Shown: positions 23,981-58,021, counted from the stretch's first letter. The stretch is DNA of 64,000 nt from an uncultured virus (IMG/VR IMGVR_UViG_3300032085_001238) (IMGVR_UViG_3300032085_001238), one strand, 5' to 3'. The notes: generated from the letters alone by a model not told the origin. Translations and numbers: made by a program.

Positions 23981-23996
23981 TTCATATATAAATATC
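23981..23996 (-). promoter_or_regulatory. Conserved late-promoter-like motif (ATATTTATATATGAA, sense)
   Basis: Repeated upstream of about 10 structural transcription units. Confidence 0.7.
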
Positions 23997-29043: not shown

Positions 29044-29907
29044 TTATTTTCCTACTTGTTCGTCTGTAGCATCACCCTCAAACCCAAACACAACTCTTGA
29101 TGGTGTAAGTGCTTTTGAAGTTTCATTAGTTGTTCCAAATATATTACTTGTAAATTCAGGTATTACATATGCTTTTATTGATAAACCAAATTCAGTTTTT
29201 ATTAATCGTTCACCATCTTGATTCATTTCAGATGCATCACTTATACTACCATCCAATGAAGATAAAAATTTATATTGTTCTGAATCACCAAAGTATGTTC
29301 CAATATGTTCAAGAAATAAATCACTTAATATATTCATTTGTTCAATATAATTAGTCATCATTACTACTGAATAATTACAAACTACGTGGTCTGGCATTCC
29401 AGTATAAATAACTTCTTGTACGGGTTTAAGTCCTCTTTGAACTGAAAATCTATCATATTGATTATCTTTTGACCAGGCATTACTTCTAGCTACTTTTATA
29501 AATTCACCTTTTACATCGTGGTCGAAAGACATAGGCATATTATCATCAAAAGAAACATCAGTTCTTCTAAACATAATTAATGGTAATATTAATGAGCCAT
29601 TTTTATCTCTTAACACACCCCTTTTTCTAAAATTTTTCCATCTTTCCTCATTACCATAATAAACAGGAACTTTAATTATTTCGTTAGCTTCTTTTATTTT
29701 TGGTTTCATTACATTTTTCATATGAGTCATTACAGATGTATCAATATCTTTTAATGTTACAGCAAAATTATTATTAAAATCTTTTCCTGGAGTTAATGTC
29801 TGTTTTGCATTACCACGAACTCTATTAGTTTTTGTAGACACTTGTGTGGCTCTATTAACTGACTCCCTATTAAGTGTTTGTTTATTTGTTATTTTATTAA
29901 CGGCCAT
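29044..29907 (-). CDS. Tail terminator / sheath stabiliser (gp15-like)
   Basis: VPVYYGNEERW, LILPLI; between neck and sheath genes. Confidence 0.7.
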   Translation of the reverse strand: MAVNKITNKQTLNRESVNRATQVSTKTNRVRGNAKQTLTPGKDFNNNFAVTLKDIDTSVMTHMKNVMKPKIKEANEIIKVPVYYGNEERWKNFRKRGVLRDKNGSLILPLIMFRRTDVSFDDNMPMSFDHDVKGEFIKVARSNAWSKDNQYDRFSVQRGLKPVQEVIYTGMPDHVVCNYSVVMMTNYIEQMNILSDLFLEHIGTYFGDSEQYKFLSSLDGSISDASEMNQDGERLIKTEFGLSIKAYVIPEFTSNIFGTTNETSKALTPSRVVFGFEGDATDEQVGK

Positions 29908-30280
29908 TTCGTCTTCTCAGTTTTTTAAGTTTATCTAATTTGTTATTAACTTTACCCTTTACTTCTTCTGATTTAATACTACTCATATCAGCTTTACCAA
30001 TTGCAATTTCTTTTTTAATATCTACTTCAATAGCTTTTACACCTGTTTGACTCGGTGAATCAAAGTTATCCAACTTATTCATCAACTTACCCATCATTTG
30101 TTCCATTTGTAGATTACCATTTGGTTCGGGTATGTAAGTGTGTTTTCTTTCACCATACATATCTTCATCCTCTTGCACATTACCACTCACCTCTTGTTTT
30201 GGTTTAGGTTTTTCTACAAAGTTAGGATTTGAAGTATCATACTTAGTAATCTTTTTTCCTGTTATTTGTTGAACAGCCAT
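29897..30280 (-). CDS. Hypothetical protein
   Basis: C-terminus similar to that of 40994..41305. Confidence 0.7.
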   Translation of the reverse strand: MAVQQITGKKITKYDTSNPNFVEKPKPKQEVSGNVQEDEDMYGERKHTYIPEPNGNLQMEQMMGKLMNKLDNFDSPSQTGVKAIEVDIKKEIAIGKADMSSIKSEEVKGKVNNKLDKLKKLRRRNGR

Positions 30281-32605: not shown

Positions 32606-33790
32606 TTATCCTATGTATATTTTTAATGGAGCTTTATTTAATACTTCCTGTTGAGCATTTGCAACTTCTTGTTCTGTAATTGCTTGTTCTTTTTTACTAA
32701 CAGCTTCTAAGAAATTATTTAATTCTTCTAATAAATTTGCTTTCTCTTCTCTACCTTCTGCCTTTAAAGCTTCACCATCCATAGAGACTTCTCCATTTGG
32801 TAATGGTAATGAAGCATATTTACTTCTAATAATTCCTAATAATTCTTTTGACAATGCTAAAGTATATTTTCTAATCCAATTTCTACCCATTGAATTTATT
32901 TCATTATATACAATAAATTTATATGGTATGTTTGATGGGTCAGATACTTTACCACTTGTCTTAGTTTGAGTAACATCCGTCATATCTTCTCGTCTATAAT
33001 AATGAAAATATATTTTATCACCAGCATCTTTTGATGTAGGTTTTGGAAATATCCTCATTTTATTATTTACTAATTCAAATGAATATGCAGATTTTCTAAT
33101 CAAGTCATTTGTTTCAATCGCATTAGCTCTAGCCAAATCATATGATATTGGTCTTAATATGTAAGACACTGCTGGTGATACACTACCAAATCCAAAAGAA
33201 TCTAATAATTCAATGTTATCATAAGTTCCAGCAAAAGGGTCATAAAATTTAGATATTGCAGCGGGTGCTTGATTAAATACTCTTTGAACCACCATTGGAT
33301 TTGTAGTTGTAACACTTGACTCTAAATTAGCCTCACTTGGTAAATCATAAACTTGTTGAGATGATGTAATGGTTATTGAACCTGTAAACATTGTAGTGTT
33401 TCCTCCAACATTTACAGCTTGTCCGTATTGTTCTGCTAAGGTAAATAAAGACATTCCACCCACAGGAGTTTCAGCTTGATGTGAACCTGTTGAACTCATT
33501 CCAGTGGTGGTATCAGTATTTCCGTAATGTTCCCACATCCAATTCTTTGTATTGTAATGATTGATTTGTTGTGAATATTCTGATACTGCTTCTTCTAAAC
33601 AAGCATATATAGAACCACTATTAAATTCAAGTTGCATAACTGGATGTCCAAGTTTTGTTGCAACATATTTACAAACCGTTAAACTATCGGTTTGAAATTC
33701 TGAATCTGCATCGTAAATTCCGTGTGGTGTAGAACCAGTTACTTGTAAAGTTGCTGTTGGGTCTTCATATAAAAATTGAAATTTTGACAT
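32606..33790 (-). CDS. Neck protein (gp13-like)
   Basis: KLGHPVMQLE, WIRKYTLALSKELLGIIRSKY; start moved to ATG 33790 behind a GGAGA RBS. Confidence 0.75.
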   Translation of the reverse strand: MSKFQFLYEDPTATLQVTGSTPHGIYDADSEFQTDSLTVCKYVATKLGHPVMQLEFNSGSIYACLEEAVSEYSQQINHYNTKNWMWEHYGNTDTTTGMSSTGSHQAETPVGGMSLFTLAEQYGQAVNVGGNTTMFTGSITITSSQQVYDLPSEANLESSVTTTNPMVVQRVFNQAPAAISKFYDPFAGTYDNIELLDSFGFGSVSPAVSYILRPISYDLARANAIETNDLIRKSAYSFELVNNKMRIFPKPTSKDAGDKIYFHYYRREDMTDVTQTKTSGKVSDPSNIPYKFIVYNEINSMGRNWIRKYTLALSKELLGIIRSKYASLPLPNGEVSMDGEALKAEGREEKANLLEELNNFLEAVSKKEQAITEQEVANAQQEVLNKAPLKIYIG

Positions 33791-33841
33791 TAATTTCTCC
33801 AAAATGGGTATAATTGTTCATATATAAATATCAATTAAAAC

Positions 33842-34618: not shown

Positions 34619-36349
34619 TTATACTAAGTTTAAGTCTTTACAATTAATTGTACCATAAAACTCTGGTCTAATCATTTTCTTAGCATATCGAGTCATTACA
34701 CCTTTTCTTGGTGTGAAATCCTCAGGGTCATATACTAATGGAGTCATAATTAGTGGTACATATGGTGAGTATACCGCACCAGTTTCTAAGAAATTACTTC
34801 CTCTGAAACCAACAAGTATTTTGTTCTCAGTCATATATGGGTTTTTGTAAACAGTGAATCTATTATTCATAGTTCCTGCTACTTGAACACCAGCAGCAAA
34901 CTGAGATTTATTCCCATCTGTACTTACCATGTATCCAGGTATTGATTCTAAGATTGTTGCAACAGTCGGAGAAACAACTACGAAGTTAGCACCACCTCTA
35001 AGAGTTAATCTTTGGATTTCGTTAGAAACCTTTTGGATTTTACCCAATAGAGTTTGATACCATTCATATCTTGTTCCATAGAATGTTGTAATAGCCCATG
35101 CACTTTCATCAGTACCTGTTCCATTATAATCTTCACCAGGAGTTGCAGACCAAAACTCTTCTGTTACTGCATCACCAATTAACATATCAAGTATTTCTAA
35201 ATCAATTTCCATTGAAATGTACTCACTTAACATTGAAGTTAATTCAGCTTCAGCGTCAACAGAATGATAAGCATTTAAGTCTTGAGCTAACTCAGGAGAC
35301 CATACAGCTTTCAGTTTTCTTGTTTTCGCAACGATAGCTTGAGACTTCAATTGTAAGTCAACTTGAGGTATGTTAAGGTTACTATTATCATCAGCAACAC
35401 CAACTGTATCTTCAAAATCACCTCTATCAGATTCAGTAGGTTGTAATGGTATGTTCACTTTAATTGATTCATTCAATGTAGCAGCTGATTGAGATACAAT
35501 CATTGTTACATTACCAGTTGCAGAATCAAATGTTGTGAATTGTGGGAACTGTTTTTTAACATTAGCTGAACCAGAAACAATTTTAACTGCTCTAAATGCT
35601 TTTGTATCAAATTTAGCATCTAATGCAACAGCATCAAAAGTAACTTTTAATAAGCTACCTTGTGCTAATGAAGCAGAATGTTCTTGACTGAAGTTAATAT
35701 CTTTATAAGTTGCTGAAGCAGTTGAAGCTGCAGTTCCAGTTTCTGAAGCAACATCAACTAAACCAACAGTTACAGCATTATTCTCTTTAATATTAATAGA
35801 ATAATCATATCTACCTTCACCATACAAACCACCAACACCATACGGAGCAGATGAACCGATTGGAGAGTTAGGACCTGATTTACCAGCTAATGATTCAACT
35901 TCACCACCTGGAACAACAGACCTATTAACACCACCAGCAGTAGTTGCAGTATTAGCATTACCAAAGTTACTTAATGATGTTCCATATTTGAAATCAAGAT
36001 AGAACACTAGACCGGATGGTAAGTTCATTGGTTGAACAGATACAAAGTCTTGAGCTGCAATCTCACCAAAGATTCTACGAACCAATGGTAATGCAACACC
36101 AGACCATTCTTCTGAACCAGCCGTACCAGCAGTACCACTACCAGCACCTCCACCAGTTGCAGAGTTTTCTTGGATTAACTGTTTTGCTTGGTTTTCAAGC
36201 ATTACAGCCATTCCATTTTTTTGAAAATCCTCATTCAAACCATCAAGAAGACCCGTTTTGTCCCATTTACTAACGAGACCTTTCGTTTCATCTTGTTGTT
36301 TTTTATAAGGAGAAGCGTCTAATAACGCTTCGTTAACATAATTTGACAT
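34619..36349 (-). CDS. Major capsid protein (gp23-like)
   Basis: VQPMNLPSGLVF, KTRKLKAVWSPELAQDLNAYH, YSPYVPL, PRKGVMTRY. Confidence 0.97.
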   Translation of the reverse strand: MSNYVNEALLDASPYKKQQDETKGLVSKWDKTGLLDGLNEDFQKNGMAVMLENQAKQLIQENSATGGGAGSGTAGTAGSEEWSGVALPLVRRIFGEIAAQDFVSVQPMNLPSGLVFYLDFKYGTSLSNFGNANTATTAGGVNRSVVPGGEVESLAGKSGPNSPIGSSAPYGVGGLYGEGRYDYSINIKENNAVTVGLVDVASETGTAASTASATYKDINFSQEHSASLAQGSLLKVTFDAVALDAKFDTKAFRAVKIVSGSANVKKQFPQFTTFDSATGNVTMIVSQSAATLNESIKVNIPLQPTESDRGDFEDTVGVADDNSNLNIPQVDLQLKSQAIVAKTRKLKAVWSPELAQDLNAYHSVDAEAELTSMLSEYISMEIDLEILDMLIGDAVTEEFWSATPGEDYNGTGTDESAWAITTFYGTRYEWYQTLLGKIQKVSNEIQRLTLRGGANFVVVSPTVATILESIPGYMVSTDGNKSQFAAGVQVAGTMNNRFTVYKNPYMTENKILVGFRGSNFLETGAVYSPYVPLIMTPLVYDPEDFTPRKGVMTRYAKKMIRPEFYGTINCKDLNLV

Positions 36350-36366
36350 TATATTTATCTCCTAAG

Positions 36367-37407
36367 TTATTTAACTAAACCAGCAAGTTTTTTGAACCTG
36401 TTAGCAACTTGAACCTCTTCAGAAATCACTTTACGAGATTCTGTAGATGGTTTAGTTGATGCAACAGGAGCACTAGCTGATTCACTAATTGATTTTTTTG
36501 TTACGATTGAACTATTATCACCAAACTGTTCTGCAAGTGTAGAATAAACAAGTTTAATCTCTCTTGTAGTTTGAGCTCTGTCAAATGTTTCAACCACTTT
36601 AAGTTTTTGATTGTTATCTAATGAATAAGATTTAAATAATTTATTAGTAAATAACAATTTAGCATTCAGAATGTTAACTTCGTGAAGTTTGTCTTTCAAG
36701 AAATGAACTGCTTCTTTGTACTCTTTTAATTCAGCTTCTAAAGAAGATTCTTTCATACCAGTTTTACCTTTACCGATACCTGATGATACATCAGTATTAT
36801 CTTCTTTATTGTCACCTTTACCAATTCCAGATGATTTGTCAAGTTCTTCATCGACTTCGTCTTTGTCGTCCTCGTCATCTTCTTCAGTAAGAGCAGCTTC
36901 ATCGATTTCATACTCTTCTTCAACAGTTTCTTCAGATTCATGCATACCTTCTTCAGCTTCATCTTCATCATCGTCTTCAGTTAATTCAGACTCTAACTCT
37001 TTAATGATAGCTTCTAAGTCAAGATTGCTTTCATCCATTTCTTCATCTTCGTCATGCATTCCTTCTTCAGCGTCGTCGTGCTCGCCTTCGTCATGCATAC
37101 CTTCTTCACGTTCATCACCTTCTTCAGCTTCGTCATCGTGTTCACCTTCCATAGGTGCACGCATTTCTTCAGCTTCATCATCGTGTTCACCTTCTTCACG
37201 CTCTTCACCTTCTTCATGCTCACCTTCTTCTTTTTCATCATGACCAAATTCTTCAACTTCGTCATCTTCTTCTTCTTTAAGTTTAGCAGAAAGCATAGAT
37301 TTGATTTGGGGTGTGAATGCTTCTTCTAAAGCCATTTTAGCATTTTCTAACGCAGTTTCTCTAACTGCTTTAGCATCTGCTATAGCTTCTTTTAAAATAT
37401 CTCCCAT
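36367..37407 (-). CDS. Prohead core / scaffold protein (gp22-like)
   Basis: Very acidic with EGxHDD repeats; EVNILNAKLLF; start moved to ATG 37407 behind a GAGGAG RBS. Confidence 0.85.
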   Translation of the reverse strand: MGDILKEAIADAKAVRETALENAKMALEEAFTPQIKSMLSAKLKEEEDDEVEEFGHDEKEEGEHEEGEEREEGEHDDEAEEMRAPMEGEHDDEAEEGDEREEGMHDEGEHDDAEEGMHDEDEEMDESNLDLEAIIKELESELTEDDDEDEAEEGMHESEETVEEEYEIDEAALTEEDDEDDKDEVDEELDKSSGIGKGDNKEDNTDVSSGIGKGKTGMKESSLEAELKEYKEAVHFLKDKLHEVNILNAKLLFTNKLFKSYSLDNNQKLKVVETFDRAQTTREIKLVYSTLAEQFGDNSSIVTKKSISESASAPVASTKPSTESRKVISEEVQVANRFKKLAGLVK

Positions 37408-37542
37408 GATATTTCTCCTCAATGTATTTTTTGGAATAAGTTTATTTGGAAACTTAATAAATGTTAAGTTATATTTAGACACCGTAAAAGGGTAGACGGT
37501 GTATTGTGTCTTTCGGTAATAAATATTAAAAATTAATAAAAA

Positions 37543-38061
37543 TCACAACAATTTTTTATGTTTTTTTATGCCTAATCGTTTAAAGTCTTCTGTAAGAAAG
37601 TTATCGTACCATTTAGTCTTTTTCAATTTATTACTAGCTTCAAACAAATCTTTCTTTTTAGCTAAATTATACAATACACAAGGTGCTTTCTTTCTTGTTT
37701 TTAATCCTGCAACTTTAAAATCTTCAAATGGTGAAAACATCAATAACTTAATATCTTTCATATTATTTTCTTTTAATTGTTCATTTATGAATTTTTGATA
37801 TGATTGTCTTTTTATTGTTTTCATATCATCACCAATATGTAGAATCAGTCCAGTCTTGAAATCAGATTCATTCCATTCTTGAATCATTTCAATAAGTGAT
37901 TTGTCCATATTAGAATTATACACCATAAACTTTATATTGCCAGTTTGTAAATCTCCTTGTATGAAAGGACATATTGGCATATTGTTAAATGTGGGATTTG
38001 GTGTCTGTAAAAAATCTAAATATTCAAATAATTTGTCTATTATTTCATTATGAGTATTAAT
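37543..38061 (-). CDS. Hypothetical protein (PxCPF motif), probable non-ATG start
   Basis: Frame is open 39 codons upstream of ATG 37980; an ATT at 38061 overlaps the bS21 stop. Confidence 0.55.
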   Translation of the reverse strand: MNTHNEIIDKLFEYLDFLQTPNPTFNNMPICPFIQGDLQTGNIKFMVYNSNMDKSLIEMIQEWNESDFKTGLILHIGDDMKTIKRQSYQKFINEQLKENNMKDIKLLMFSPFEDFKVAGLKTRKKAPCVLYNLAKKKDLFEASNKLKKTKWYDNFLTEDFKRLGIKKHKKLL

Positions 38062-38305
38062 AGTCTTCTTTCTCTTTTTGAACTTGATATTGATTTCTTA
38101 GTTTGGCAAGATTTCTTTTTTCTCTTTTGACTCTTGAGGGTTTTTCAAAGTATTCTTTTTTTCTTAAATCTATGAACAAATTACTATCCTTTACTTTTCT
38201 TTTAAGTATTCTCATAGCTTTTTCTACTTCATTGTTATATACTTCTACTTGTAATCCTTGTAACTGTTTTTTAGGCTTTCTCCTAAAATTTTTTCTTTTT
38301 TTCAT
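38057..38305 (-). CDS. rpsU: Ribosomal protein bS21 homolog
   Basis: VEKAMRILKRKV...LRKKEYFEKPSRVKR. Confidence 0.85.
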   Translation of the reverse strand: MKKRKNFRRKPKKQLQGLQVEVYNNEVEKAMRILKRKVKDSNLFIDLRKKEYFEKPSRVKREKRNLAKLRNQYQVQKEKEDY

Positions 38306-38306
38306 A

Positions 38307-39977
38307 TTAACCTCTTGGATTTAGTTTGTTTTTCATTAAAAATTCTACTGCTTTATTGTATTCCTTCTTAGGAACATTTAATTCTATATCATTACCTTTT
38401 TGTTTAAATTTTGGTAAACTTTTAAATGGATATTTTTTCATCGCTTTTTGTAGTTTTGACATATCTTTTTTATTTAACAAAATTTTCATCAGTTTTTGTT
38501 CTGAAAGTTTTTCTTCATTAACTCCTGCACCAAGTTCATTCTTTATAGCTTGTGTGACTAATGTTACTTGGACTTTATCATTTTGACTATGGAATTGTTT
38601 TAATTTCTTTTGAATTAATTTACTATTAAAGTTCTTTGGAAAATACTTTTTGAAGTTTTTATAATTTACATTATCTGGTGAATATGACATAGCTCTTATG
38701 ATAGCAAGAATTGAACTACCAACTCTATTCAAATGAGATTTATTATTCACATCAAAATTCTTAATTTTTGATTTAAGATTTCTAACTATTTCTCTAACAA
38801 GAATGAATAGTATTTTTCTATCACTACCAGTTATAGCTTCATTCAATTGTTCTTTGATGATTTCTCTAATTTGTTCTCTTAATTTTTGTTCTGATGTAAG
38901 TTTTCCTTCATATACTTTTTTATTTTGTTGAAGGTTTTTGAATAATTTATTTTGTTTATCATCAATTGTTTTATACTTCTTTGGATTTTCATTAAAATCC
39001 ACAAGAGCATAATTTAACATCTTCATCCATTTAGTATCACTATGTTTTTTACGAAAATCAGATAGCATCTTAAAAAACTTATTCTTATCTTTCTTAGCTT
39101 TTTTGTAAAAATAAAAAACATTTACTCCAGCAGAAACTTCTGTAAGTTTTCCTTCAGTCATTTGTTCTGATTTAGATTTCAAAAACTCAGTAGCCAAATA
39201 TCTTTCTCTTCCGTATTGAGCTTTTGTCCATTTCTTACTCATTGATTTAGGCATTTCACTCAATTCAACACCTTCGTTATTCACCATCCAAGCAACTCTA
39301 CGAGCGTCTGAATTATATACTTTCTTATAACGATTTTCTTCTAATTTTTTCATCCACATTCTTACTTCTTTGACGGTAAATCTTCTTTTCTTAGATTCTT
39401 GAATTGATTCATCAAACTCACCATCCATAGCTTTTTGTTCAATATTATCCATCATTTCTTGAGCTTCAGCATCTAATTCTTTTATCTTATTAGTAGTTCC
39501 TTCTGGCGCTCTACCATCATTATTAAAAATTGATAGGCCAATATCAGATGCTCTTTTTTGTAAATCTTTTAATTTATCTACATATTCTTCAGGTATATTA
39601 CCTTCATTATCATCTATAAATTCACCAACTCGGTTATGAGTTTGTTCAGCCTTTTCACCTACCTTAGTATCACCACCTAAAAATGATGGTTTATCTGGTA
39701 CCAATGAGTCTGGTTTTTCTTTTTCTTTTTTAGAAAATGGATTTAATTTAGATAATTTAGAAAGAAACCCTTTTTTCTTTTTTGATTTATCATCAGTAGG
39801 AGTTTTAGCAACCATATCTTTTGCTTTTTTGTTCGCAGGATGTTCATCAGGTAATTGTAAAGCAGTTCTTACTTTAATCATATTTCCTGTTTTAGGATTT
39901 TTGATTTCTTTGTCCATTATGTCTTCCACAATGGCCTGTCTGATTAATTCTTTAAGCTGACTCTTCTTGATTTTCAC
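38307..39977 (-). CDS. Modular putative internal head protein
   Basis: N-terminal KSQLKELIRQAIVE; modules separated by EGKLTE/EEKLSE linkers. Confidence 0.6.
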   Translation of the reverse strand: MKIKKSQLKELIRQAIVEDIMDKEIKNPKTGNMIKVRTALQLPDEHPANKKAKDMVAKTPTDDKSKKKKGFLSKLSKLNPFSKKEKEKPDSLVPDKPSFLGGDTKVGEKAEQTHNRVGEFIDDNEGNIPEEYVDKLKDLQKRASDIGLSIFNNDGRAPEGTTNKIKELDAEAQEMMDNIEQKAMDGEFDESIQESKKRRFTVKEVRMWMKKLEENRYKKVYNSDARRVAWMVNNEGVELSEMPKSMSKKWTKAQYGRERYLATEFLKSKSEQMTEGKLTEVSAGVNVFYFYKKAKKDKNKFFKMLSDFRKKHSDTKWMKMLNYALVDFNENPKKYKTIDDKQNKLFKNLQQNKKVYEGKLTSEQKLREQIREIIKEQLNEAITGSDRKILFILVREIVRNLKSKIKNFDVNNKSHLNRVGSSILAIIRAMSYSPDNVNYKNFKKYFPKNFNSKLIQKKLKQFHSQNDKVQVTLVTQAIKNELGAGVNEEKLSEQKLMKILLNKKDMSKLQKAMKKYPFKSLPKFKQKGNDIELNVPKKEYNKAVEFLMKNKLNPRG

Positions 39978-40992
39978 CCTCTTCCTCCTCTATGAGTTGT
40001 GCTTCACTTAAACAACCTCTTGCGACTGCTGTATGAGCGTCTTCCACTAATGTGAATTTCTCTACTTCTATTGGAAACTCATCTTGATTAAATTGTTCAC
40101 TTACTACTTCCATAAAACCTTTAACCAATGATGTTCCACCACCGAATACAATCGGTATAGCATTTGGGAAGTTTGGAACACTTTCAGCATTATTGAACTG
40201 ATTTGTTAAATTTGTTAATAAGTAATTCACTAATGCTCCGTAATAACTTCTAATAGCATTAATGATATTATACTCATCACTTCCCTCATTATAAATATCA
40301 TTTATTGCACTTTTTGTTAAATCCAAGTTCTTAGAACTTTCTTTTATTGAAATCACTTTTGCTTTTGTAACACCACAATCGTTTGCTACACATTCATCTA
40401 TCCAATCTCCACCTCTTGCTACAGAAAAGGAGAGTGCACTCATCCCTTGATACATCACACATACATTACACATTCCAGCACCCATAGATATTGCAATCCC
40501 AGTTAAATCATTATCCACGAGTCCTTCGTAAGCGAGAGCAACACTCTCCTCTATAACTTTTACATCGTATCCATATGTTTCAATAATCTGTTTCAATACA
40601 TCTTCGTGATAAGAAACTTCTCTTGTTTGGTCTATTGGTTTGGCTGGTATACAATAAACACAAGTTTCTTTACCTTTTGACTTACCTAGCAATTCACCAA
40701 TAATTGCATTCAATACAGGTAGTGCATCTTTTTCTTTTGGATTTAATAATCCACTTGACATTGGTCGTTTTAATTCTGTTGTACTAAATATTTGTGCATA
40801 ATTAAAAGCGTGTTGTCCAACGATGTGAACTTTACCACCCTTTTCAACAAATGGTATTCTTTGTCTTTTTAACATTCGTTTAACTTGATTTGCATCTCCG
40901 TCAACAGTTAAGAATACATTTCTTTGTTTTTTTATACTATTTTCTGTGGCTGTTATATAATAACTTGTTCCACAATCTAAGCCTTTTGCCAT
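39952..40992 (-). CDS. Actin-like ATPase (MreB/FtsA/ParM superfamily)
   Basis: GLDCGTS (phosphate 1), ESVA (connect 1), SMGAG (phosphate 2), GGDWID, FGGGTS (adenosine). Confidence 0.85.
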   Translation of the reverse strand: MAKGLDCGTSYYITATENSIKKQRNVFLTVDGDANQVKRMLKRQRIPFVEKGGKVHIVGQHAFNYAQIFSTTELKRPMSSGLLNPKEKDALPVLNAIIGELLGKSKGKETCVYCIPAKPIDQTREVSYHEDVLKQIIETYGYDVKVIEESVALAYEGLVDNDLTGIAISMGAGMCNVCVMYQGMSALSFSVARGGDWIDECVANDCGVTKAKVISIKESSKNLDLTKSAINDIYNEGSDEYNIINAIRSYYGALVNYLLTNLTNQFNNAESVPNFPNAIPIVFGGGTSLVKGFMEVVSEQFNQDEFPIEVEKFTLVEDAHTAVARGCLSEAQLIEEEEGENQEESA

Positions 40993-40993
40993 A

Positions 40994-41305
40994 TTAACCT
41001 CTGAGTTTCTTTAGTTTATCTTTTTGGGTTTTAACCTTACCCTTAATTTTTTCGTCTAACTTTACACTAACTTCATCTGTTGTAGTGTCCATTATTCTAT
41101 TACTCTTTATATCTACTTCTATTGGCCCCATATTCTTTTTAACTTTTGTTTCTTCTATCGTTGAAGTTTTTATTACTTCTCCGATGTTTAAGTTGGGAGA
41201 CTTTTGAAACTTTAAGTTTTTTGAAACCCATATTAGTAAAACATAACAACCTACAACTACCTGCCATATAAATAGACTAATGAATATAAAATCAAACAAT
41301 TCCAC
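40994..41305 (-). CDS. N-terminally membrane-anchored protein
   Basis: N-terminal TM helix, basic C-terminal tail. Confidence 0.65.
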   Translation of the reverse strand: MELFDFIFISLFIWQVVVGCYVLLIWVSKNLKFQKSPNLNIGEVIKTSTIEETKVKKNMGPIEVDIKSNRIMDTTTDEVSVKLDEKIKGKVKTQKDKLKKLRG

Positions 41306-41913
41306 TATTTACCTTTTACAAAATCTCCAAGTGCTGGTATATTAACTACACCACCAATATCTGATAATCTTTTTGGTTTTACTGATTCATCTTTTTTGAT
41401 AGCTTTAGATATTGCATCTCTTCTCTTTTTCAAATATTCATCTGAATCATCTACATCACCATCATTATCAACATCTGAATCTTCTTTCCCTACAGCATCT
41501 AATTTTTCTTCCATTTCAGAATCTTCATCATCGTGTCCATAAACATGAGCTTCATCTATTTCATAGTAACGATTCAATACATGTCCCATATCTTCATACA
41601 ATGCAGTCAATCTTTGATTTAAAGCTTGTGCTTCTTTAGCAGTTTTTGTAAATTCTACAACACTACCTTTTAATGATTTCATATTTTTATTAATTGAAAC
41701 TTTATCAAACCAATCATCTTGTTCACCTAAAATGTGATGATGTGCAGATTCTGCAACTTCTGATAATTGTTTTGCAATTTCAACTATGTTGTTATTATTA
41801 TACAATTGTTTTCCAACAATACCAAAGTTCTTAACACCCTCAACAACTTTATATTTGTCAATTTGTGGTCTGTCTTCAAACGCTTCTGATAATATGTCTT
41901 TTAATTTTGCCAT
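41305..41913 (-). CDS. Putative internal head protein
   Basis: Start moved to [10 protein letters not shown] behind [19 protein letters not shown] acidic loop. Confidence 0.6.
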
Positions 41914-41927
41914 TTTTATGTCTCCCA

Positions 41928-42215
41928 TTATTTCCAAAATATTATTTTAGCTATTATACCCAACACTAAAGTGTAAATACCCCATAGTGCAGTGGTTACA
42001 TTTTGTTTAAAATTCTTTAATTCTGTTATATCTTGTATATCGATTTGTTTTCTCCAAAAGGTATTTTTATTTACTCTAACAATAATACCATCTTCCGGGT
42101 CTAATAATACTTCTTTAATTTCTGTTACAGTTTGATGAATTTGTTCTAATTCACCATTCATTAGTTTTGTTTCAACACATTCTAACTTTTCTATAATATC
42201 TTTATTAGTAGCCAT
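41928..42215 (-). CDS. Small protein with C-terminal TM helix
   Basis: Coiled coil plus [19 protein letters not shown]. Confidence 0.6.
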
Positions 42216-42817
42216 TATCTTTTACTCGCTGTTCTGTTTTTCATTGCTTTTGTACCACCAAAGTATTTTCTAAATCTATCTACTATCTTATCTTTAGTTA
42301 AAACACTTTGTAAAAATTCTACTTCATATGGATAAGCCCTTGACATATCACCATGTTGAAATCCTCTGACTAAATCAAAGAAATCAATCACACCATTTTT
42401 TGCCTTTGTCATCCAATCCTTTACCACTTTACCTTGTAGTTTTCTTAATTCTTTTGAATATTTCCTTAAAGCATCATCAACAACCATCTTTGCTTCTTTT
42501 GATGAAAATGGTGGAGGTGATGATACACCACCAAATGATTCACTTAAATCACTATTTAATAAATAATCTCTTGACTTGTTTAAATAATTAGAAGCCAATG
42601 TGATTTTATCTGTCCACCACGCTGGTAAAGAATCCTCTTTATCCATAGATTCTAATTTCTTCAATAATTCTTCAGAGTCTTCAATTGATAATTTTAACTT
42701 TCTAATAGCAGATGGAACATCAGTATGTCCGTCTTCATTGACTTTAAAAGGTTTTCTGTCTTTATCAGTATAAACCCTACCTAATTCAATATCTTTTAGT
42801 AAGTCTTGAAGTTTCAT
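42215..42817 (-). CDS. Putative internal head protein
   Basis: MKLQDLLKD; LPAWWTDKITLASNYL module. Confidence 0.6.
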   Translation of the reverse strand: MKLQDLLKDIELGRVYTDKDRKPFKVNEDGHTDVPSAIRKLKLSIEDSEELLKKLESMDKEDSLPAWWTDKITLASNYLNKSRDYLLNSDLSESFGGVSSPPPFSSKEAKMVVDDALRKYSKELRKLQGKVVKDWMTKAKNGVIDFFDLVRGFQHGDMSRAYPYEVEFLQSVLTKDKIVDRFRKYFGGTKAMKNRTASKR

Positions 42818-43089
42818 CTATCTATTCCAATATATTTTGCTTTGTTTTTATTTAAAAATCTTTCTAAATCTTTTGTTCCTTTTGGATAATAATCATTTCT
42901 ATCACCAATTAAATGAAACTCATTAAATCCATTATCATAAAGTTTAAATTTTTCATTCTTTATTTGAACTACAATTCTTTCTCTTTCATTCCTTTTTGGT
43001 ATAGATGATACCTCACCACCTGGCATATTCAAATACTTACCTTTCATTTTAAACTTTCCTTCTGATAATAAGTCTTTTAATTTAATCAT
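42814..43089 (-). CDS. Putative internal head protein
   Basis: MIKLKDLLSE N-terminus. Confidence 0.6.
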   Translation of the reverse strand: MIKLKDLLSEGKFKMKGKYLNMPGGEVSSIPKRNERERIVVQIKNEKFKLYDNGFNEFHLIGDRNDYYPKGTKDLERFLNKNKAKYIGIDR

Positions 43090-43369
43090 TTTTCATAGCC
43101 GTTTTAATCTTTTGTATATCAGCCATAAGTTGTTGTGGTGTCATACCAGCAGCATCAATTACTTTATACAATATAGCAGCTCTTTTCATTCTATTCAAGT
43201 TTGCACCTTTCATAGATTGAACAAATTTATCTAAGAATCTATTTACAACTGATGGTAATTTGATTTTATCAAAATTAATTTCATTAAGGTTTTCTTCCTT
43301 AATCATACCAGTTTCTTTACGAATCTCTTGATTTTGTTTTTTAATTAAATCTTTCATATTAATCATCAT
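43082..43369 (-). CDS. Hypothetical protein
   Basis: MINMKDLIKK; AGGAG RBS. Confidence 0.65.
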   Translation of the reverse strand: MMINMKDLIKKQNQEIRKETGMIKEENLNEINFDKIKLPSVVNRFLDKFVQSMKGANLNRMKRAAILYKVIDAAGMTPQQLMADIQKIKTAMKND

Positions 43370-43375
43370 ATACTC

Positions 43376-44305
43376 CTATTTTACAACTGCCCATAATGTG
43401 TTCATTAATTGCGTTGGACTTTTATATCCTATATCTGATAATATTTTTTTCATTTTAGGATTTACTTTTTTAAATACTTTTGTTAATAGATTAGCTGTTT
43501 GCATATCTACTGTTACTAATCCTTTTTTAGTGTTGTAACCATATGCTTGTTTATCTTTCATAACTCTAGCAGCAACATCAAATATTGTTTCTTTTGCTTC
43601 TGTAAGTTTTCCTTCAAGTTTAATTGCTTTAGCTTCTGGACTATTATATTTACCACTCTTTTTTAATTTTTTCACTAACATTTTAGCAGCTCTTTCGTTT
43701 TTAACTACTTTAATAGTTTCACGGCCACCATCTGTCACTACCCACATACCTTGTTTAGCCATTCTTTGAACTGCAGCTGATTGTTTTTCTTTGAGTTTCT
43801 TTTTAATCAAATGAGGACCTGCTGGTTCTTCACCTAATTCACCATTCTCACCATATCCACAAGTTCCTTCACCCAATATATCTTTAGCTTTATCTGATAA
43901 ATATTTTATATCTGCACTTGCTATTTGTTTTAAAACTTTCTTATCTGTTTTTTTCAATAATGTCACAATCTGTTGAACAAGTGGATTGTTATCAGGTAAA
44001 GTTCCTTTCATATCCTTAAATGCTCTTTTTAATTGTTTGATGTGTGATGAACTAAATGGTATTCTTACTTCATTCATGTTAGCCAACTCTTCACGAACCA
44101 TTTTCTTAATCAAGTTTCTAACTTTCATTTCTCTTTTCACCTTGTTTGGTAATCCTTTGTGTTTTGTTTTTGCATATTTATCAACATCTTTTTTCTTCAT
44201 TGACTTAGCAACTTTTCCAGCTTCACCCTCTTTAGGTTTATCACCTTTTTGCATTGACTTTACAACACCAAAAAATCTTTGTTGAGCTTTTGATGATGCT
44301 GGCAT
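43376..44305 (-). CDS. Modular basic putative head protein
   Basis: MPASSKAQQRFFG...TKHKGLP module; EGKLTE linker. Confidence 0.65.
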   Translation of the reverse strand: MPASSKAQQRFFGVVKSMQKGDKPKEGEAGKVAKSMKKKDVDKYAKTKHKGLPNKVKREMKVRNLIKKMVREELANMNEVRIPFSSSHIKQLKRAFKDMKGTLPDNNPLVQQIVTLLKKTDKKVLKQIASADIKYLSDKAKDILGEGTCGYGENGELGEEPAGPHLIKKKLKEKQSAAVQRMAKQGMWVVTDGGRETIKVVKNERAAKMLVKKLKKSGKYNSPEAKAIKLEGKLTEAKETIFDVAARVMKDKQAYGYNTKKGLVTVDMQTANLLTKVFKKVNPKMKKILSDIGYKSPTQLMNTLWAVVK

Positions 44306-44622
44306 TACATTAACTTTCTAAAATTCTTTTTATATTTTTTTGTGAAATCAACTATATTCTTTTTATAATTATCTAAAAAGTCAGCAGCTTCATCATTTAA
44401 TCCTTTTTTTCTTAAACTATCATATAAATCCAAATAAGACTTTTGTAATCCTTTTAAAGACTTATCTATATTTTTAGCGTGTTTTTTATATTCGAAAGCA
44501 GGGCCTTCATTTATATTAAACTCATCTTTGATAGATTCCAATACTTTATTCTGTTTAGGTTTGGATTCTTTTTTCTTCTTATCATTATATCCCATTAAAG
44601 ATTTATAATCCATTTTACTCAC
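44305..44622 (-). CDS. Hypothetical protein
   Basis: 105-aa ORF in the head operon. Confidence 0.65.
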   Translation of the reverse strand: MSKMDYKSLMGYNDKKKKESKPKQNKVLESIKDEFNINEGPAFEYKKHAKNIDKSLKGLQKSYLDLYDSLRKKGLNDEAADFLDNYKKNIVDFTKKYKKNFRKLM

Positions 44623-45238
44623 CCCTAAATATATCGTTAATTATATTTTCAATTTTACAATCGTGACAACACACACCATCTCTTGTTCCAACACCTTCGT
44701 GTAATTTACCTTCATTTGTTGGTGATAGAAATGCTCCGTGTGTAGATGGATTTGATACGAAATCAAATGCAATAAGTTCAAAGTCTGGTTGAACCTCTAC
44801 TGAATCATCTTCATTCATTTCTTTTACTGAACCTAATCCTCTCGATGATATACCTAATTTAATACCACTTTTAAATAATTCTTTTAAGATGTTTCCAGCT
44901 GGTGTACCAAGTACTTCAACTGTTCCCATTAAATCATTGTCTTTCCAATGCATTTCTAATATATTATGAGAAACATTGTTTAGATTCACCACAGACGAGT
45001 CAGGATGGTCAAGTTCACCTAATGCTCTTCGTTCTTTAATTTGAATTTTTGAATATTTTTCGGCTTCTCGCATTAAAGTTTCTCGTGGATATACTCTTCC
45101 ATTTTGATTCTTTGCTTCTGCTCTTTGTAATACACCTTTAACAACCAATCTTCCATCATTGTTTTTCATTGACTCATTGATTTGTTGAGGGGAAACCTCA
45201 AATGGTATATAATCTACTATTACTTGTTTTGACATCAT
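44615..45238 (-). CDS. Prohead protease (gp21-like)
   Basis: NQNGRVYP, ALGELDHP, GISSRGLGS, DFVSNPS. Confidence 0.96.
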   Translation of the reverse strand: MMSKQVIVDYIPFEVSPQQINESMKNNDGRLVVKGVLQRAEAKNQNGRVYPRETLMREAEKYSKIQIKERRALGELDHPDSSVVNLNNVSHNILEMHWKDNDLMGTVEVLGTPAGNILKELFKSGIKLGISSRGLGSVKEMNEDDSVEVQPDFELIAFDFVSNPSTHGAFLSPTNEGKLHEGVGTRDGVCCHDCKIENIINDIFRGE

Positions 45239-45244
45239 TGTCTC

Positions 45245-45712
45245 CTATCCTATTACAAATTCTGCAGTTCCTGTTATCTCACCTGCTATTACTTGCCAAT
45301 TGTCACCATCATACATTAAAGTTACACTTCTTCCAGGAAGATTTGATGTTAAGGTATTACCAGCTGCAAAATTAGCTGGTGTGATAACTAAATCATTACC
45401 GCCAAGTCTTGTACTATGTACTATTCTTTTTACTTGTCCTAAAATTCCATTAGCAAGTGATACATGTGTTCTAGAACCAGCAGAAACACACAATGATGTT
45501 GTAGTCTTTAAAGATAAAGGTACAGCATTATCTGCACCATTACCTCCTAAAACTGGTCCCTCCAAATCTTCACCTGGTGAACCACTGGCGTTTTGTGAAT
45601 CAGAAATTCCAGGGTCTAACGCAAATCCCAAAGCCTTTTTCTGTTTTGGTGTTAAACCAGTTCCATAGTCTGATGTTAATATTTGCTTTTTACCTTGAAA
45701 TAAAACTCCCAT
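45245..45712 (-). CDS. Structural protein, paralog A
   Basis: Shares KQILTS.YGTGLT.KQK and NWQV.AGEITGTAE with the upstream gene. Confidence 0.65.
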   Translation of the reverse strand: MGVLFQGKKQILTSDYGTGLTPKQKKALGFALDPGISDSQNASGSPGEDLEGPVLGGNGADNAVPLSLKTTTSLCVSAGSRTHVSLANGILGQVKRIVHSTRLGGNDLVITPANFAAGNTLTSNLPGRSVTLMYDGDNWQVIAGEITGTAEFVIG

Positions 45713-46164
45713 TATGCTATCACCATTTCTGCTGTTCCTGTTATCTCACCAGCAACTACTTGCCAATTTAAACCATCAAATAATAATTGAACAGCTCTAG
45801 CAGCTGCATTTGAAGTTAAGGTATCACCAGCAGCAAAAATACTATCACCACCAATTCCATCCTCAGGTGTGATAACTAATGCATTACCACCCAGTATTGA
45901 TTTATGTATAATTACTTTTAATTGTCCTTCAACACCCTTACCTAATGTTACATGTGTTGCACTAGCTTTTGTTGATACTAAAGACACTGTGGTTGTTGAT
46001 GATAAAACTGTTGCATTACTTGTACCATTACCAGCGATTACAGTTTCAGTACTATAAACAGTCGGTTTTAATACCCAAGCTCTACTGAGTTTTTGTTTAC
46101 TAGTTAAACCTGTACCATAACCTGATGTTAGAATCTGTTTATCACCATCTATTATTTTTGGCAT
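45712..46164 (-). CDS. Structural protein, paralog B
   Basis: Tandem paralog of 45245..45712. Confidence 0.65.
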   Translation of the reverse strand: MPKIIDGDKQILTSGYGTGLTSKQKLSRAWVLKPTVYSTETVIAGNGTSNATVLSSTTTVSLVSTKASATHVTLGKGVEGQLKVIIHKSILGGNALVITPEDGIGGDSIFAAGDTLTSNAAARAVQLLFDGLNWQVVAGEITGTAEMVIA

Positions 46165-46174
46165 TTATAAACTC

Positions 46175-46480
46175 CTATTTCCAAGCATTTCGTTTCAACC
46201 ATATATCTCTTAATATATCGCCAACAACATTTCTAATTAATTTTGTTATTTGTTTTAAATCTTTATCATCAATAGCTTCTTTTACAAATGTAAAACCAGT
46301 GCTCTTTTTAAATCTTTTTTTCTTTTTCTTTTCATCTTCTTTTGAACTAAAAGCAAATGGAGTTGAATATCCTGCAACATTACCAGTGGTGGTTATTTCT
46401 TCTAAACTTTCTTCGTCTAAAAGTTCAAGTGTTAGTTTTTTAACTAACTCTTTAAATAACTTTCTGTTTTTTATTTCCAC
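46175..46480 (-). CDS. Hypothetical head-region protein
   Basis: LEEITTTGNVAGYSTPFAF motif. Confidence 0.65.
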   Translation of the reverse strand: MEIKNRKLFKELVKKLTLELLDEESLEEITTTGNVAGYSTPFAFSSKEDEKKKKKRFKKSTGFTFVKEAIDDKDLKQITKLIRNVVGDILRDIWLKRNAWK

Positions 46481-47327
46481 TTTTTTTCACTTCCTTTACA
46501 AGTTCTAAATATCTCATTGTTTGAATAACATACTCATCTTTAACAACATCTGATTTATCATCAATACCACAGAATTTGTTAATGGATTTTATAGCTTCAC
46601 TCATTTTGATTTTTACAACTTTATCTTGTAAGTTTTTAGAATGTGTTTGTAAATCTTTCTTTAAACCTTTTACAATCTCTCTTAAAGTATCTTTTAATGA
46701 ATTAGTATTAGATACATTGTTAATATACTCACGAAGTAGATTCTTTTGAGCTGAACTTAATTTTGTATATTTTTGATTAAATTTTTCTAAAAGGGTTCTA
46801 TAAGTTAATATTCTTAAATCTTCATCATCTGGTAAAGTAGTAACAGTTTCTGATAACTTAATAGATTTGTCAGTTGTTGTCACATGTTCCACAATATTAA
46901 AATGTGATTCTGTTTTTTGGTCAGGTGACAAAGATTTGTTATATTCAAATAATGTAAAAATAGATGCGTAAGTTTTATAATGTGGAACTTTAGAAGACAT
47001 AAATTTCTGTAGATTATAATTAGATTGAATCTCTTTAATTAAATTATATCTCTCTCTTCTAAGTGTAGAATTATTTAAATCTTTTCTGGCTTTCATAACT
47101 TCATTAATGAAGTAATCAGCCTTTGTATCAGACTTAAATTTCTTTGTTATTAATATATTGTATAGAGCTAGTTCTTTACCCAACTCCGTGTTTTCGTTAA
47201 ACTTTTCTTTAACGATTTTTACCGCTAGCCCATTGTCTTTATTTAGCACATCAGATGTAATCTGCCTTAGCAAAAATTCAAACAATAAACCTGTGTTGCG
47301 GATTTTATTGTGTTTAACTTTACGCAT
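46452..47327 (-). CDS. Helical protein downstream of the portal gene
   Basis: KHNKIRNTGLLFEFLLRQITSD; own late motif. Confidence 0.7.
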   Translation of the reverse strand: MRKVKHNKIRNTGLLFEFLLRQITSDVLNKDNGLAVKIVKEKFNENTELGKELALYNILITKKFKSDTKADYFINEVMKARKDLNNSTLRRERYNLIKEIQSNYNLQKFMSSKVPHYKTYASIFTLFEYNKSLSPDQKTESHFNIVEHVTTTDKSIKLSETVTTLPDDEDLRILTYRTLLEKFNQKYTKLSSAQKNLLREYINNVSNTNSLKDTLREIVKGLKKDLQTHSKNLQDKVVKIKMSEAIKSINKFCGIDDKSDVVKDEYVIQTMRYLELVKEVKKSGNKKQKVI

Positions 47328-47408
47328 TGTCGAGTCCCCATTTTGTTTGGATACTATATATGTAATTATTCATATATAAATATAATGTTTTTTGTAAATA
47401 CATTGATT

Positions 47409-49193
47409 TTATTCCTCTTCATCTAAAATAATTTCTTCATTTAACATAGATTTATCTAAATCTTTACCAAACTTATCTTTAAGTGAATTTAATAAACCTT
47501 CTCTTGCAACAATCGTTCCACCTTTTGATGTAGCCAATGGAGAACCACCTTTAAACTCTCGTTTTCCATATCGTTCTGTTTTGTGTTTTGTTGCATCTTT
47601 TATATCTTTGGCTGAGTATTCATTACCAAATTCTTTCTTACCAGTTCCACTTCGTCTATCCCCACCATGTTCACCACTCTGTTCTTCCATATCATCAGTT
47701 GGTTCTGTTCCTTCATCGGCTGGGTCTGTTCCCTCAGTTTCAATTTGTTCCATTCTAAATTGTTGTTTTCTATCTTCAATCACACCATTGAATACATCAA
47801 CTTTTTCTTCATCATTTAACTCAAAAATATTATCATATATCCATTGCCTTGAAAATAATTTGTTTTCAATCAAGTCATTAGCAATATCTTTTTTCTGTGT
47901 TAATAATTCTAATTTCTCTTGTTGATGTATCATTGATGGATTTGTTAACTCTAATTCAAAATTAATCAACTCAGCATCATCAAACCCTTGTGTGTATAAG
48001 TGAACAATAGCAATCTTTTCTAATTCAGCTACAATAATTTTTTGTAGTCTTTCAATTGTTCTTGCGAATCTAACATCTTCAGCTGCTAATGTAGCTTTTG
48101 AACCTACATTCTCATCATATCCCAAAAATGCTTTAGGAACTTTAAGAGCTGCCATCATTTTATTTTTTAAATACTCTACATCTTCAATTGCACCATCATT
48201 ACCCAAACCTGGTAAAGTATCAATTTGAGTTCCACTATCACCACCACGAACAGGTAAGTAATAATCTTCTGTTACGGATTCCATATTGTATTTTAAATTA
48301 TATTCACCATTTGCATTCATCACAGGTGTCTTTTTCATTTTACCAATAATTTGTTGCATAAAGTTATCTACTTCATTTGGAGGTATATTACCAATGTCAA
48401 CTTTGAATACTCTTTTCTCTGGTGCTCTCATCATACGATGAATCAACATAGCGTCTTCCATAAGAGTTAATTGTTTAAATACTCTTCTTGCACCTTCTAA
48501 CATTGATTTACCATAAGGTAAGTAATTTGTATCTGCAAGATTTCTGAAATGAGCAACTTCATAATTTTCGTGAACATCATTTGGTTTTGAACTTCTTGTT
48601 GATTCTGAATATTGTTGAATTTCAAATTGAACTAATTTAGGATTACTTGGGTCATGTCCCTCTAATCTATTTACTTCATATACTGAAAGAGGTTTTACAT
48701 TAACAACTCCGTGTTTATCCAATATATCTAAATGTAAGTAGAAATCACCATATTTAACCATATTTCTAATATAACTCCATAGATTAAATTCAATGTTTAT
48801 TATGTCATAAAATAAGTTATGTAAAATTTTATGGACTTTTGGATTATTAGTTTTAATTTTCATTATTCTGTTTTCAATATTATCAACCGTAGATTCATCA
48901 CAATAAATATCCAATGCTGATGATATGATTGGGTCTGCATCCATTAATTCATAATCTCTAAATAATTCTTTTCTAGCTACATCATACGCACTTGCATTTT
49001 GTTTGGCTTGATATGCTGAATTACCATATCCACTTGAATTAATTCTATTATATCTATCAATAAAATTAGATGTTAGTGCAGTTTGAGAAAACTCGACATC
49101 CTTGACTTTTACTTGCCCGTCATTTGTTTTTCTAACTACAATTTGATTTTGAAATAATTTTCCTAATTTCTGTAATATATTTTCGTCTGCCAT
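47409..49193 (-). CDS. Portal protein (gp20-like)
   Basis: LMEDAMLIHRMMRAPEKRVFKVDIGNIP, EDYYLPVRG, IDTLPG. Confidence 0.96.
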   Translation of the reverse strand: MADENILQKLGKLFQNQIVVRKTNDGQVKVKDVEFSQTALTSNFIDRYNRINSSGYGNSAYQAKQNASAYDVARKELFRDYELMDADPIISSALDIYCDESTVDNIENRIMKIKTNNPKVHKILHNLFYDIINIEFNLWSYIRNMVKYGDFYLHLDILDKHGVVNVKPLSVYEVNRLEGHDPSNPKLVQFEIQQYSESTRSSKPNDVHENYEVAHFRNLADTNYLPYGKSMLEGARRVFKQLTLMEDAMLIHRMMRAPEKRVFKVDIGNIPPNEVDNFMQQIIGKMKKTPVMNANGEYNLKYNMESVTEDYYLPVRGGDSGTQIDTLPGLGNDGAIEDVEYLKNKMMAALKVPKAFLGYDENVGSKATLAAEDVRFARTIERLQKIIVAELEKIAIVHLYTQGFDDAELINFELELTNPSMIHQQEKLELLTQKKDIANDLIENKLFSRQWIYDNIFELNDEEKVDVFNGVIEDRKQQFRMEQIETEGTDPADEGTEPTDDMEEQSGEHGGDRRSGTGKKEFGNEYSAKDIKDATKHKTERYGKREFKGGSPLATSKGGTIVAREGLLNSLKDKFGKDLDKSMLNEEIILDEEE

Positions 49194-55875: not shown

Positions 55876-56136
55876 TTACATAACATTTTTGTTAAACCAA
55901 GCTTTTAATTTAGTGCTTAATTCATATGAATCGTCATCATTAAGTTTTCTTGATTCTTTTCTCAATAAACCAATTATTTTAGTAAAAGCTCTATCGGCTT
56001 TTCCTTCTGTAATTTTTTCTTCTGCTTTAACACAATTACGATATGTTTTACCAAACATTTTTTTTGTTTTACGAGTTGGATGTGTCTTATATCCTTTTTG
56101 ACACTTTTCTGATATTAAGTCTTTTAATTTTACCAT
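55876..56136 (-). CDS. Putative internal head protein
   Basis: Start moved to MVKLKDLISE; CQKGYK...NCVK module. Confidence 0.6.
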   Translation of the reverse strand: MVKLKDLISEKCQKGYKTHPTRKTKKMFGKTYRNCVKAEEKITEGKADRAFTKIIGLLRKESRKLNDDDSYELSTKLKAWFNKNVM

Positions 56137-57957: not shown

Positions 57958-58021
57958 TGTGATTCCCTTGACAGCAATCACATTCACATTTACAATTTTC
58001 ACAACACTTACAATTACTCAT
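57950..58021 (-). CDS. Metallothionein-like micro-protein (23 aa, 8 Cys)
   Basis: MSNCKCCENCKCECDCCQGNHND; GAGGAG RBS; overlaps both neighbours. Confidence 0.6.
   Translation of the reverse strand: MSNCKCCENCKCECDCCQGNHND

Follow-up and report, generated by a model that had tools for sequence, protein, structure and literature searches.

The 64,000 nucleotides (nt) of DNA from an uncultured virus analyzed here (IMG/VR IMGVR_UViG_3300032085_001238; the whole stretch is called the window below) are a segment of a T4-like myophage with all genes on the minus strand, and they encode an actin of the volactin family. A single-pass membrane protein is encoded directly upstream of the actin, and its C-terminal tail recurs in a soluble protein encoded in the neck gene cluster. 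From the family, intact fold, strong conservation, gene co-occurrence, shared tail, and operon context observed here, we propose that the actin would form a late-made filament held by its end via the tail helix, connected to the membrane through one protein and to assembly cargo through the other. We rate the chances of this reading as about even. The features on which it turns are as follows (aa, amino acids).

39952-40992, minus strand: volactin-family actin-like ATPase, 346 aa, single domain, acidic C-terminus (PF25216)
40994-41305, minus strand: single-pass membrane protein, 103 aa, GTG start; candidate actin anchor (by co-occurrence)
41231-41287, minus strand: predicted transmembrane helix of the membrane protein, residues 7 to 25 (hydropathy, 2.49)
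40997-41134, minus strand: conserved C-terminal tail of the membrane protein, residues 58 to 103; candidate actin-binding element, with the helix pattern V-x-x-Q-x-x-x-L-x-x-L-R at its end
29897-30280, minus strand: soluble 127-aa protein with the same tail; candidate second adaptor (tail profile match)

An actin of the volactin family

The open reading frame (ORF) at 39952-40992 is an intact volactin-family actin. Its product matched the Pfam model Volactin (PF25216) with an E value of 1.8e-74 and 251 bits (cutoff, 35), residues 1 to 331 being aligned to model positions 1 to 321 of 321. All five actin-fold motifs pointed out by a sequence-only reading of the window were recovered: DCGTS at residue 6, ESVA at 149, SMGAG at 169, GGDWID at 194, and GGGTS at 284. 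Motif columns were compared among volactin, Mad28-like, MamK, MreB, and FtsA proteins; the ATPase motifs were in the volactin form (DxGT, connect-1 E, SxGxG, GGDxxD, KE, and GGT) and nearly invariant in 79 sequences. Ser replaces the phosphate-2 Asp in the window actin, and this residue (S169) is nearly invariant in the same 79 sequences, i.e., the variant is family-wide. E149, which aligns with the connect-1 glutamate of MamK, presumably has a catalytic role. The protein has a pI of 4.8 and no hydrophobic segment (maximum hydropathy, 1.47).

An AlphaFold2 model of the actin (pLDDT, 94.8; pTM, 0.92) was structurally closest to BeeR (Z score, 27.7; rmsd, 3.5; 304 residues), followed by MreB (25.8), BiP (22.9), PilM (20.8), EutJ (19.8), ParM R1 (18.8), and sugar kinases (16.4). 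A profile of the 79 relatives compared with PDB retrieved MamK first (E = 2e-17), then 8r2n (BeeR), and then MreB. Membership in the MreB, MamK, BeeR, or FtsA family was ruled out by scores far below the family cutoffs (34 versus 530 bits for BeeR, 20 versus 366 for MreB, and 17 versus 176 for FtsA), and the MamK model had no listed match to the window actin. An Hsp70 or sugar kinase was likewise ruled out, given a single domain of 346 aa and Z scores for BiP and sugar kinases below those for BeeR and MreB. The sequence-only reading had named grouping with such folds as an outcome that would speak against it; instead, the protein joined volactin and Mad28-like actins in tree and profile comparisons. 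That reading was right about the superfamily but had missed both the family and the third component (29897-30280).

The window actin is 34% identical to a Haloferax volactin orthologue and 33% identical to a protein of a magnetosome-type cluster (locus L352). In trees of 96 and 36 sequences, in which the backbone was weak, the window clade was tight and stood apart from the archaeal and Mad28-like clades; a position inside the archaeal volactin clade, as an orthologue of VolA, was rejected, the separation of the two clades being well supported. A search of BFVD returned no close structural relative, the best match being phage G gp506 (14% identity). Elsewhere in the family, P0148, P0178, P0205, and similar proteins contain inteins with LAGLIDADG or HNH domains past approximately residue 180, and other members are fused to ParB-type helix-turn-helix (HTH), kinase, Wzz/ParA, or PRC domains or carry two actin domains.

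A scan of viral contigs detected 135 actin relatives, of which the best 80, 71 to 100% identical, were kept. The actin was more conserved than the capsid protein in all 41 loci with both genes (81% versus 63% identity) and more conserved than the protease in 23 of 27, and its dN/dS ratio was 0.08 to 0.15 in seven close pairs. Two further viral scans yielded 407 and 414 confirmed relatives (the best 80 kept from each), and viral records of 485 and 595 kb also matched the family.

Because the motifs are intact and characterized relatives form filaments, the actin would be expected to bind ATP and polymerize; by this analogy, we regard polymerization as very likely. A quite unlikely alternative is an assembly factor that makes no filament. 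As a monomer or small oligomer, the actin would then serve as a chaperone in the assembly of necks or tails, or it would be a minor component of the virion, and the tails would be docking tags. PilM and EutJ act as monomers or small oligomers. This alternative would agree with the loss of the phosphate-2 Asp, with the position beside neck and sheath genes that is kept in other clades, and with an N-terminal leader, shared by neighboring genes, that suggests head-internal proteins. However, the Ser variant is family-wide and is present in Mad28, which polymerizes; the filament formers BeeR and MreB match the model above PilM and EutJ; and the leader is absent from the actin.

A membrane protein and a soluble protein with the same tail

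The membrane gene is 1 nt from the actin gene on the same strand. As had been read from the sequence, its product combines a transmembrane helix with a basic tail: there is one hydrophobic segment, and the tail has a pI of 9.6. The 19-residue Kyte-Doolittle mean starting at residue 7 is 2.49, and it was at least 1.8 in 50 of 53 aligned homologues. Seven tail positions (G89, V91, T93, Q94, K95, K97, and L98) were invariant in 53 sequences, and dN was lower for the tail than for residues 1 to 57 in seven of seven pairs. The protein had no Pfam match, and a four-helix membrane domain of the DUF7139/CdpA-like type was ruled out by this result and by the single hydrophobic segment. Only unnamed clusters were found in the ESM Atlas for the membrane protein and for the soluble tail protein.

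Loss of the membrane gene from related loci, which the sequence-only reading had considered fatal to its proposal, was not observed. The gene was present upstream of the actin in 67 of 80 loci, and the 13 loci without it have at most 501 nt of upstream sequence. The gap between the two genes was within 60 nt in 39 of the 67 loci and up to 1.7 kb in the others. In the reverse search, 77 of 80 loci with the membrane gene (the best 80 of 111) also had the actin, and the remaining 3 stop 0.6 to 2.7 kb downstream among small genes; the forward and reverse counts are not independent because many contigs were common to both searches. Since the actin groups with volactin and Mad28-like proteins and the membrane gene is co-conserved, the proposed pair of an actin and its anchor is well supported as a hypothesis.

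The 29897-30280 product shares its C-terminal end with the membrane protein, the match covering the last 45 residues of the latter (profile probability, 98.8%; E = 5e-17). This gene is located between the Ad2 adaptor run and a gp15-like gene, and among the 80 loci taken, it was present in all 58 that span both flanking genes. No hydrophobic segment was detected in 18 of 18 of its products. The AlphaFold2 model is mostly disordered (mean pLDDT, 60), with helices at residues 55 to 71 and, terminally, 114 to 125. The tail profile detected exactly two proteins in the window and exactly two in a relative of 168.8 kb that is approximately 95% complete (G005). Both tails are basic (pI 9.6 and 10.2). 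By analogy with the ParR peptide on ParM, the C-terminal helix of both proteins would bind the actin, probably at the filament end; we consider binding of the tail to the actin likely.

Partners of a similar kind accompany the actin in other phages. An upstream gene with a strand-linker-helix tail was found for 87 of 103 distinct phage actins outside the window clade, a count that is partly circular because the tail profile was built from 68 of those genes. Most of the listed partners have no hydrophobic segment. The usual gene order is a 450-aa gene, a 180-aa gene, the partner, the actin, a 400-aa gene, and a very long ORF; a sheath domain was matched in two tested long ORFs and an HK97-gp10 family in one upstream gene, and several loci have metabolic neighbors instead. 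Profile comparisons of these flanking genes with the window neck genes all gave probabilities under 1%, so that positional equivalence between the clades rests on the gene order and the two sheath hits. A role in positioning proheads, as first suggested from the window, was not borne out, since other clades keep the pair near neck and sheath genes, mostly with a soluble partner; the place of the pair in the head cluster is thus a feature of this one clade and points toward late timing rather than toward proheads.

Among the archaeal loci examined (the best 80 of 521), a membrane gene of at least 200 aa was located upstream of volactin in 74, and the true partner was also present at locus L312. 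This agrees with the report that HVO_2016, a CdpA-like protein, adjoins volactin (PMC12126565).

The view that the tails of the window-clade, other-phage, and archaeal partners are one motif is partly supported, the link being weak and post hoc. With a matrix derived from haloarchaeal partner helices alone, the tail proteins ranked first and second of 70 genes in the window and first and second of 157 genes in G005; with an other-phage matrix, they ranked fourth and second in the window and second and first in G005. Shuffled tails equaled the matrix score in 0 to 4 of 2,000 cases. In the opposite direction, a window-clade tail matrix placed the partner on top in 37 of 39 haloarchaeal loci (approximately nine genes each; L312 left out) and in 47 of 87 phage loci (8 expected), and a combined matrix did so in 13 of 34 other archaeal loci (4.6 expected). 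Profile-profile comparison of other-phage with haloarchaeal tails gave probabilities of 31 to 56%. Two further candidates were rejected. CdpA's C-terminal domain is not the same tail, as the probable CdpA has a Cys-rich end segment without a match, and no natural fusion of tail and actin was present in the extensions that long family members carry at their N or C termini.

Gene context, timing, and possible roles

The source of the window is a common, uncultured marine T4-like phage whose clade is abundant in the sea. The genome size of the clade is probably just below the jumbo range, with one relative, G005, at 168.8 kb and approximately 95% estimated completeness. Pfam and PHROGs matches in the window include terminase, portal, protease, capsid, Ad2 adaptor, sheath, and tube genes. 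The features that frame the actin and the two tail proteins are listed here.

47369-47383, minus strand: 15-bp motif, putative late promoter, heading the run with the protease, membrane gene, actin, and bS21
44615-45238, minus strand: prohead protease (PF03420, E = 3e-28; phrog_207)
38057-38305, minus strand: ribosomal protein bS21, second gene past the actin (PF01165, E = 3e-11)
36367-37482, minus strand: scaffold-like gene (label from position and acidity only)
34619-36349, minus strand: gp23-type major capsid protein (PF07068, E = 3e-79)
33817-33831, minus strand: same 15-bp motif, heading the neck gene run with the soluble tail protein (ahead of the same gene in 20 of 41 loci)
32606-33802, minus strand: head-tail adaptor Ad2, three genes ahead of the soluble tail protein (phrog_211, E = 9e-14)
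29044-29907, minus strand: gp15-like tail sheath stabilizer, weak match, directly past the soluble tail protein (PF16724, E = 3e-4, under the cutoff)

The pair had been described as sitting between the protease and scaffold genes. The order is correct, but the membrane gene follows the protease only after seven intervening genes, and another three intervene between the actin and the scaffold-like gene, which had no Pfam or PHROG match.

The 15-bp motif occurs nine times in the window, against 0.12 copies expected (minus strand, at 23981, 25669, 26272, 28676, 29005, 33817, 34513, 47369, and 63577), and is located ahead of sheath, tube, neck, and other genes. From the copy at 47369-47383 to bS21, the run contains no gap of more than 25 nt. 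A looser pattern preceded the first gene of this run in each of 16 loci, the immediate upstream neighbor of the membrane gene in 16 of 65, and the actin itself in 0 of 69. We infer from this distribution that the motif may be a late promoter. The motif, which is conserved in relatives, has at its core the T4 late box in reverse complement; upstream of these genes, the canonical T4 late motif on the coding strand was not detected, and the enriched motif is in the opposite orientation. Contigs from three of four marine RNA runs cover the actin with a summed depth of approximately 24 or more (approximately 1 in the fourth); neither strand nor level can be read from such contigs, which may also contain DNA and sequences of relatives, and they were not used as evidence.

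Under the proposed mechanism, the phage would make its own volactin-family actin late in infection. Through the membrane protein, the ends of filaments would be attached to the inner membrane; through the soluble protein, filaments would be linked to another partner, for which intermediates of virion assembly are the most likely candidates. We infer this cargo, as we do the late timing. The outcome would be a phage-built, membrane-tethered filament that organizes where heads, tails, or DNA meet.

Several points weigh against this proposal. The membrane and actin genes are adjacent in only 39 of 67 loci. Mad28 binds liposomes unaided, so that an anchor may be unnecessary. Profile-profile comparison of window tails with other-phage tails gave probabilities of only 4 to 23%, and that of the window membrane tail with the haloarchaeal tail gave 1.5%, below an unrelated control (2.1%). 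The helix register was placed by eye after the sequences had been seen, and the sequences are related. An unrelated neighbor, 41305-41937, scored equally high under the phage-trained matrix, and a membrane partner with this tail was upstream in 0 of 23 bacterial volactin-family loci. In the product of 41305-41937, the gene ahead of the membrane gene, the tail-like segment is near residues 170 to 185, where there are several unnamed PHROG matches; it may be due to chance or may be a third ligand.

Remodeling of the host is an unlikely alternative. The actin and its membrane partner would alter host shape, block division, or disturb host actin, acting on MreB, FtsA, or a host volactin-family protein with a larger or stabilized infected cell as the effect, and the late gene position would reflect timing only. 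Volactin acts in a cell-shape transition (PMC10869688), the gene upstream of archaeal volactin is a relative of CdpA, a division anchor (PMC12126565), FcmB and the membrane-associated FcmC govern shape (PMC12645912), and a weak interaction of Mad28 with MamK has been described (PMC10653835). Nevertheless, most of the listed partners in other phages have no hydrophobic segment, and the pair lies among neck and sheath genes there. The window actin is also very distant from MreB and FtsA, and remodeling leaves the second tail copy in the neck cluster without an explanation.

The chance that the filament serves DNA positioning of the ParM/AlpC type is slim. In such a system, the soluble tail protein would bind phage DNA and the filament would carry genomes toward the membrane or toward sites of packaging. 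The C-terminal peptide of ParR binds ParM only at the polymerizing end (PMC9178275), and the prophage-encoded AlpC and AlpA connect phage DNA to filaments (PMC4446434); the second helix of the soluble protein could dimerize, and some cellular family members have weak ParB-type HTH matches. However, no centromere-like repeat array was present in 36000-47500, a scan that excludes the region around the soluble gene; the repeats there fall within coding sequence or paralogous genes. Neither partner matched a DNA-binding domain or family, by which binding is not excluded. Furthermore, AlpA and AlpC are early genes, whereas the window genes are in runs of structural genes.

An extension of the proposed tethered filament, possible but doubtful as a whole, is an actin spindle with two adaptors. 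The tail helix would cap filament ends at the membrane, the neck-cluster copy would grip tails or heads, and the system would be the counterpart of PhuZ in large phages without tubulin, with the helix an ancient volactin-docking motif shared with archaea. If so, the HVO_2016 tail would be the missing tip anchor of haloarchaeal volactin, and the tail helix is a testable candidate for the membrane attachment of its tips.

Other genes of the window were also of note. bS21 shares the strand of the structural genes and, in nearly all loci long enough to include it, lies within a few genes past the actin. The gene after the actin (38307-39977; L388 4279-6939) varies from approximately 90 to approximately 860 aa across loci and begins with a repeated L-K-E-L-I-R-E-E-L-like segment; some loci have several short genes with such a start. 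Two genes ahead of the membrane gene, 41928-42215 encodes a 95-aa product with a hydrophobic C-terminal end that is kept in many loci and is possibly a second small membrane protein. The tandem paralogues 45245-45712 and 45712-46164, ahead of the protease, have approximately 76% DNA identity in parts, are present in few relatives, and weakly match a host-adsorption PHROG. The 10-residue leader M-x-K-L-K-D-L-L-x-E, which we take to resemble the T4 capsid-targeting sequence of internal head proteins, starts 6 of 75 window genes (41305-41937, 42215-42817, 42814-43089, 55876-56151, 57241-58002, and 62758-63549) and 9 of 183 G005 genes, without internal matches; neither the actin nor either tail protein has it. 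G005 carries a large nucleotide-sugar biosynthesis cluster (L322 4137-18606) and, elsewhere, genes for a CCA-adding enzyme, peptide deformylase, PhoH, and UvsE. The actin gene was absent from the nearest genome record, itself an 18%-complete fragment, and a Pelagibacter label on one homologue may come from a binned phage contig.

Comparison with known systems

The volactin of Haloferax volcanii (VolA, HVO_2015) forms dynamic filaments with their tips on the membrane (PMC10869688), a behavior shown for H. volcanii volactin only. The window actin belongs to the same Pfam family over its full length and likewise has a membrane gene directly upstream, and the archaeal partner ends in the helix pattern V-x-x-[QA]-x-x-x-L-x-x-L-R. 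It differs in being phage encoded and in forming a separate clade. Its partner has one hydrophobic segment and no DUF7139, which was present in three of three archaeal partners tested, and one helix copy where the archaeal partner has two in tandem; the window has a second, soluble copy.

Mad28 of deep-branching magnetotactic bacteria (PMC10653835, PMC12713370, and PMC12748827) carries the SxGxG phosphate-2 and xExx connect-1 variants that are found in the window actin, polymerizes with ATP-gamma-S (PMC10653835), and binds liposomes directly (PMC12713370). The second actin of a magnetosome-type cluster (L352 7896-9077), to which the window actin is 33% identical (E = 3e-47), adjoins genes for a true MamK (472 bits; cutoff, 400), MamB/M-like and MamE-like proteins, and FeoB. 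Mad28 probably belongs to the volactin family, a link made by motif and position, not by a named Mad28 sequence. Mad28 binds lipid by itself and works with the coiled-coil protein Mad25, whereas the window has no magnetosome genes and a phage structural context, and its actin clade is separate from the L352 protein in the tree.

In AlpC/AlpA of the Corynebacterium prophage CGP3 (PMC4446434) and ParM/ParR/parC, as in the window, a phage or plasmid actin comes with a co-transcribed adaptor, and ParR binds by means of a C-terminal peptide. In contrast, the window actin is of another family (Z scores of 18.8 for ParM R1 and 27.7 for BeeR), one adaptor is membrane anchored, the context is one of structural rather than early genes, and no DNA-binding domain or centromere was found in the partners and the region scanned. 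The tubulin spindle of nucleus-forming jumbo phages, built from PhuZ (PMC13282480), is a functional analogue only, as the window protein has an actin fold. Tubulin was not found in four of four related records, one of them near complete. To our knowledge, the cytoskeletons known from lytic phages are tubulin based, and the actins so far known from phages are of the partition type and come from temperate phages.

Partition-type phage actins are covered in PMC8026635, and an actin of the kind described here was not found by term searches of the jumbo-phage reviews PMC7824862, PMC13282480, and PMC8314001. Our literature search, which left most subscription papers and supplements outside, yielded no published description of phage volactins. 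In phages that encode bS21 (PMC9723584), this gene also lies among terminase, portal, protease, and capsid genes; those phages have lake metatranscriptome matches and carry bS21 on the opposite strand, whereas the window has it on the same strand and matches marine metatranscriptomes. The first part of that paper mentions no actin.

The gene for an actin of this little-studied family is highly conserved in an abundant clade of marine phages, with relatives in hundreds of viral contigs, and if filaments form, many large phages would organize late infection with actin. The window encodes a real, strongly conserved volactin-family phage actin with two candidate adaptors.

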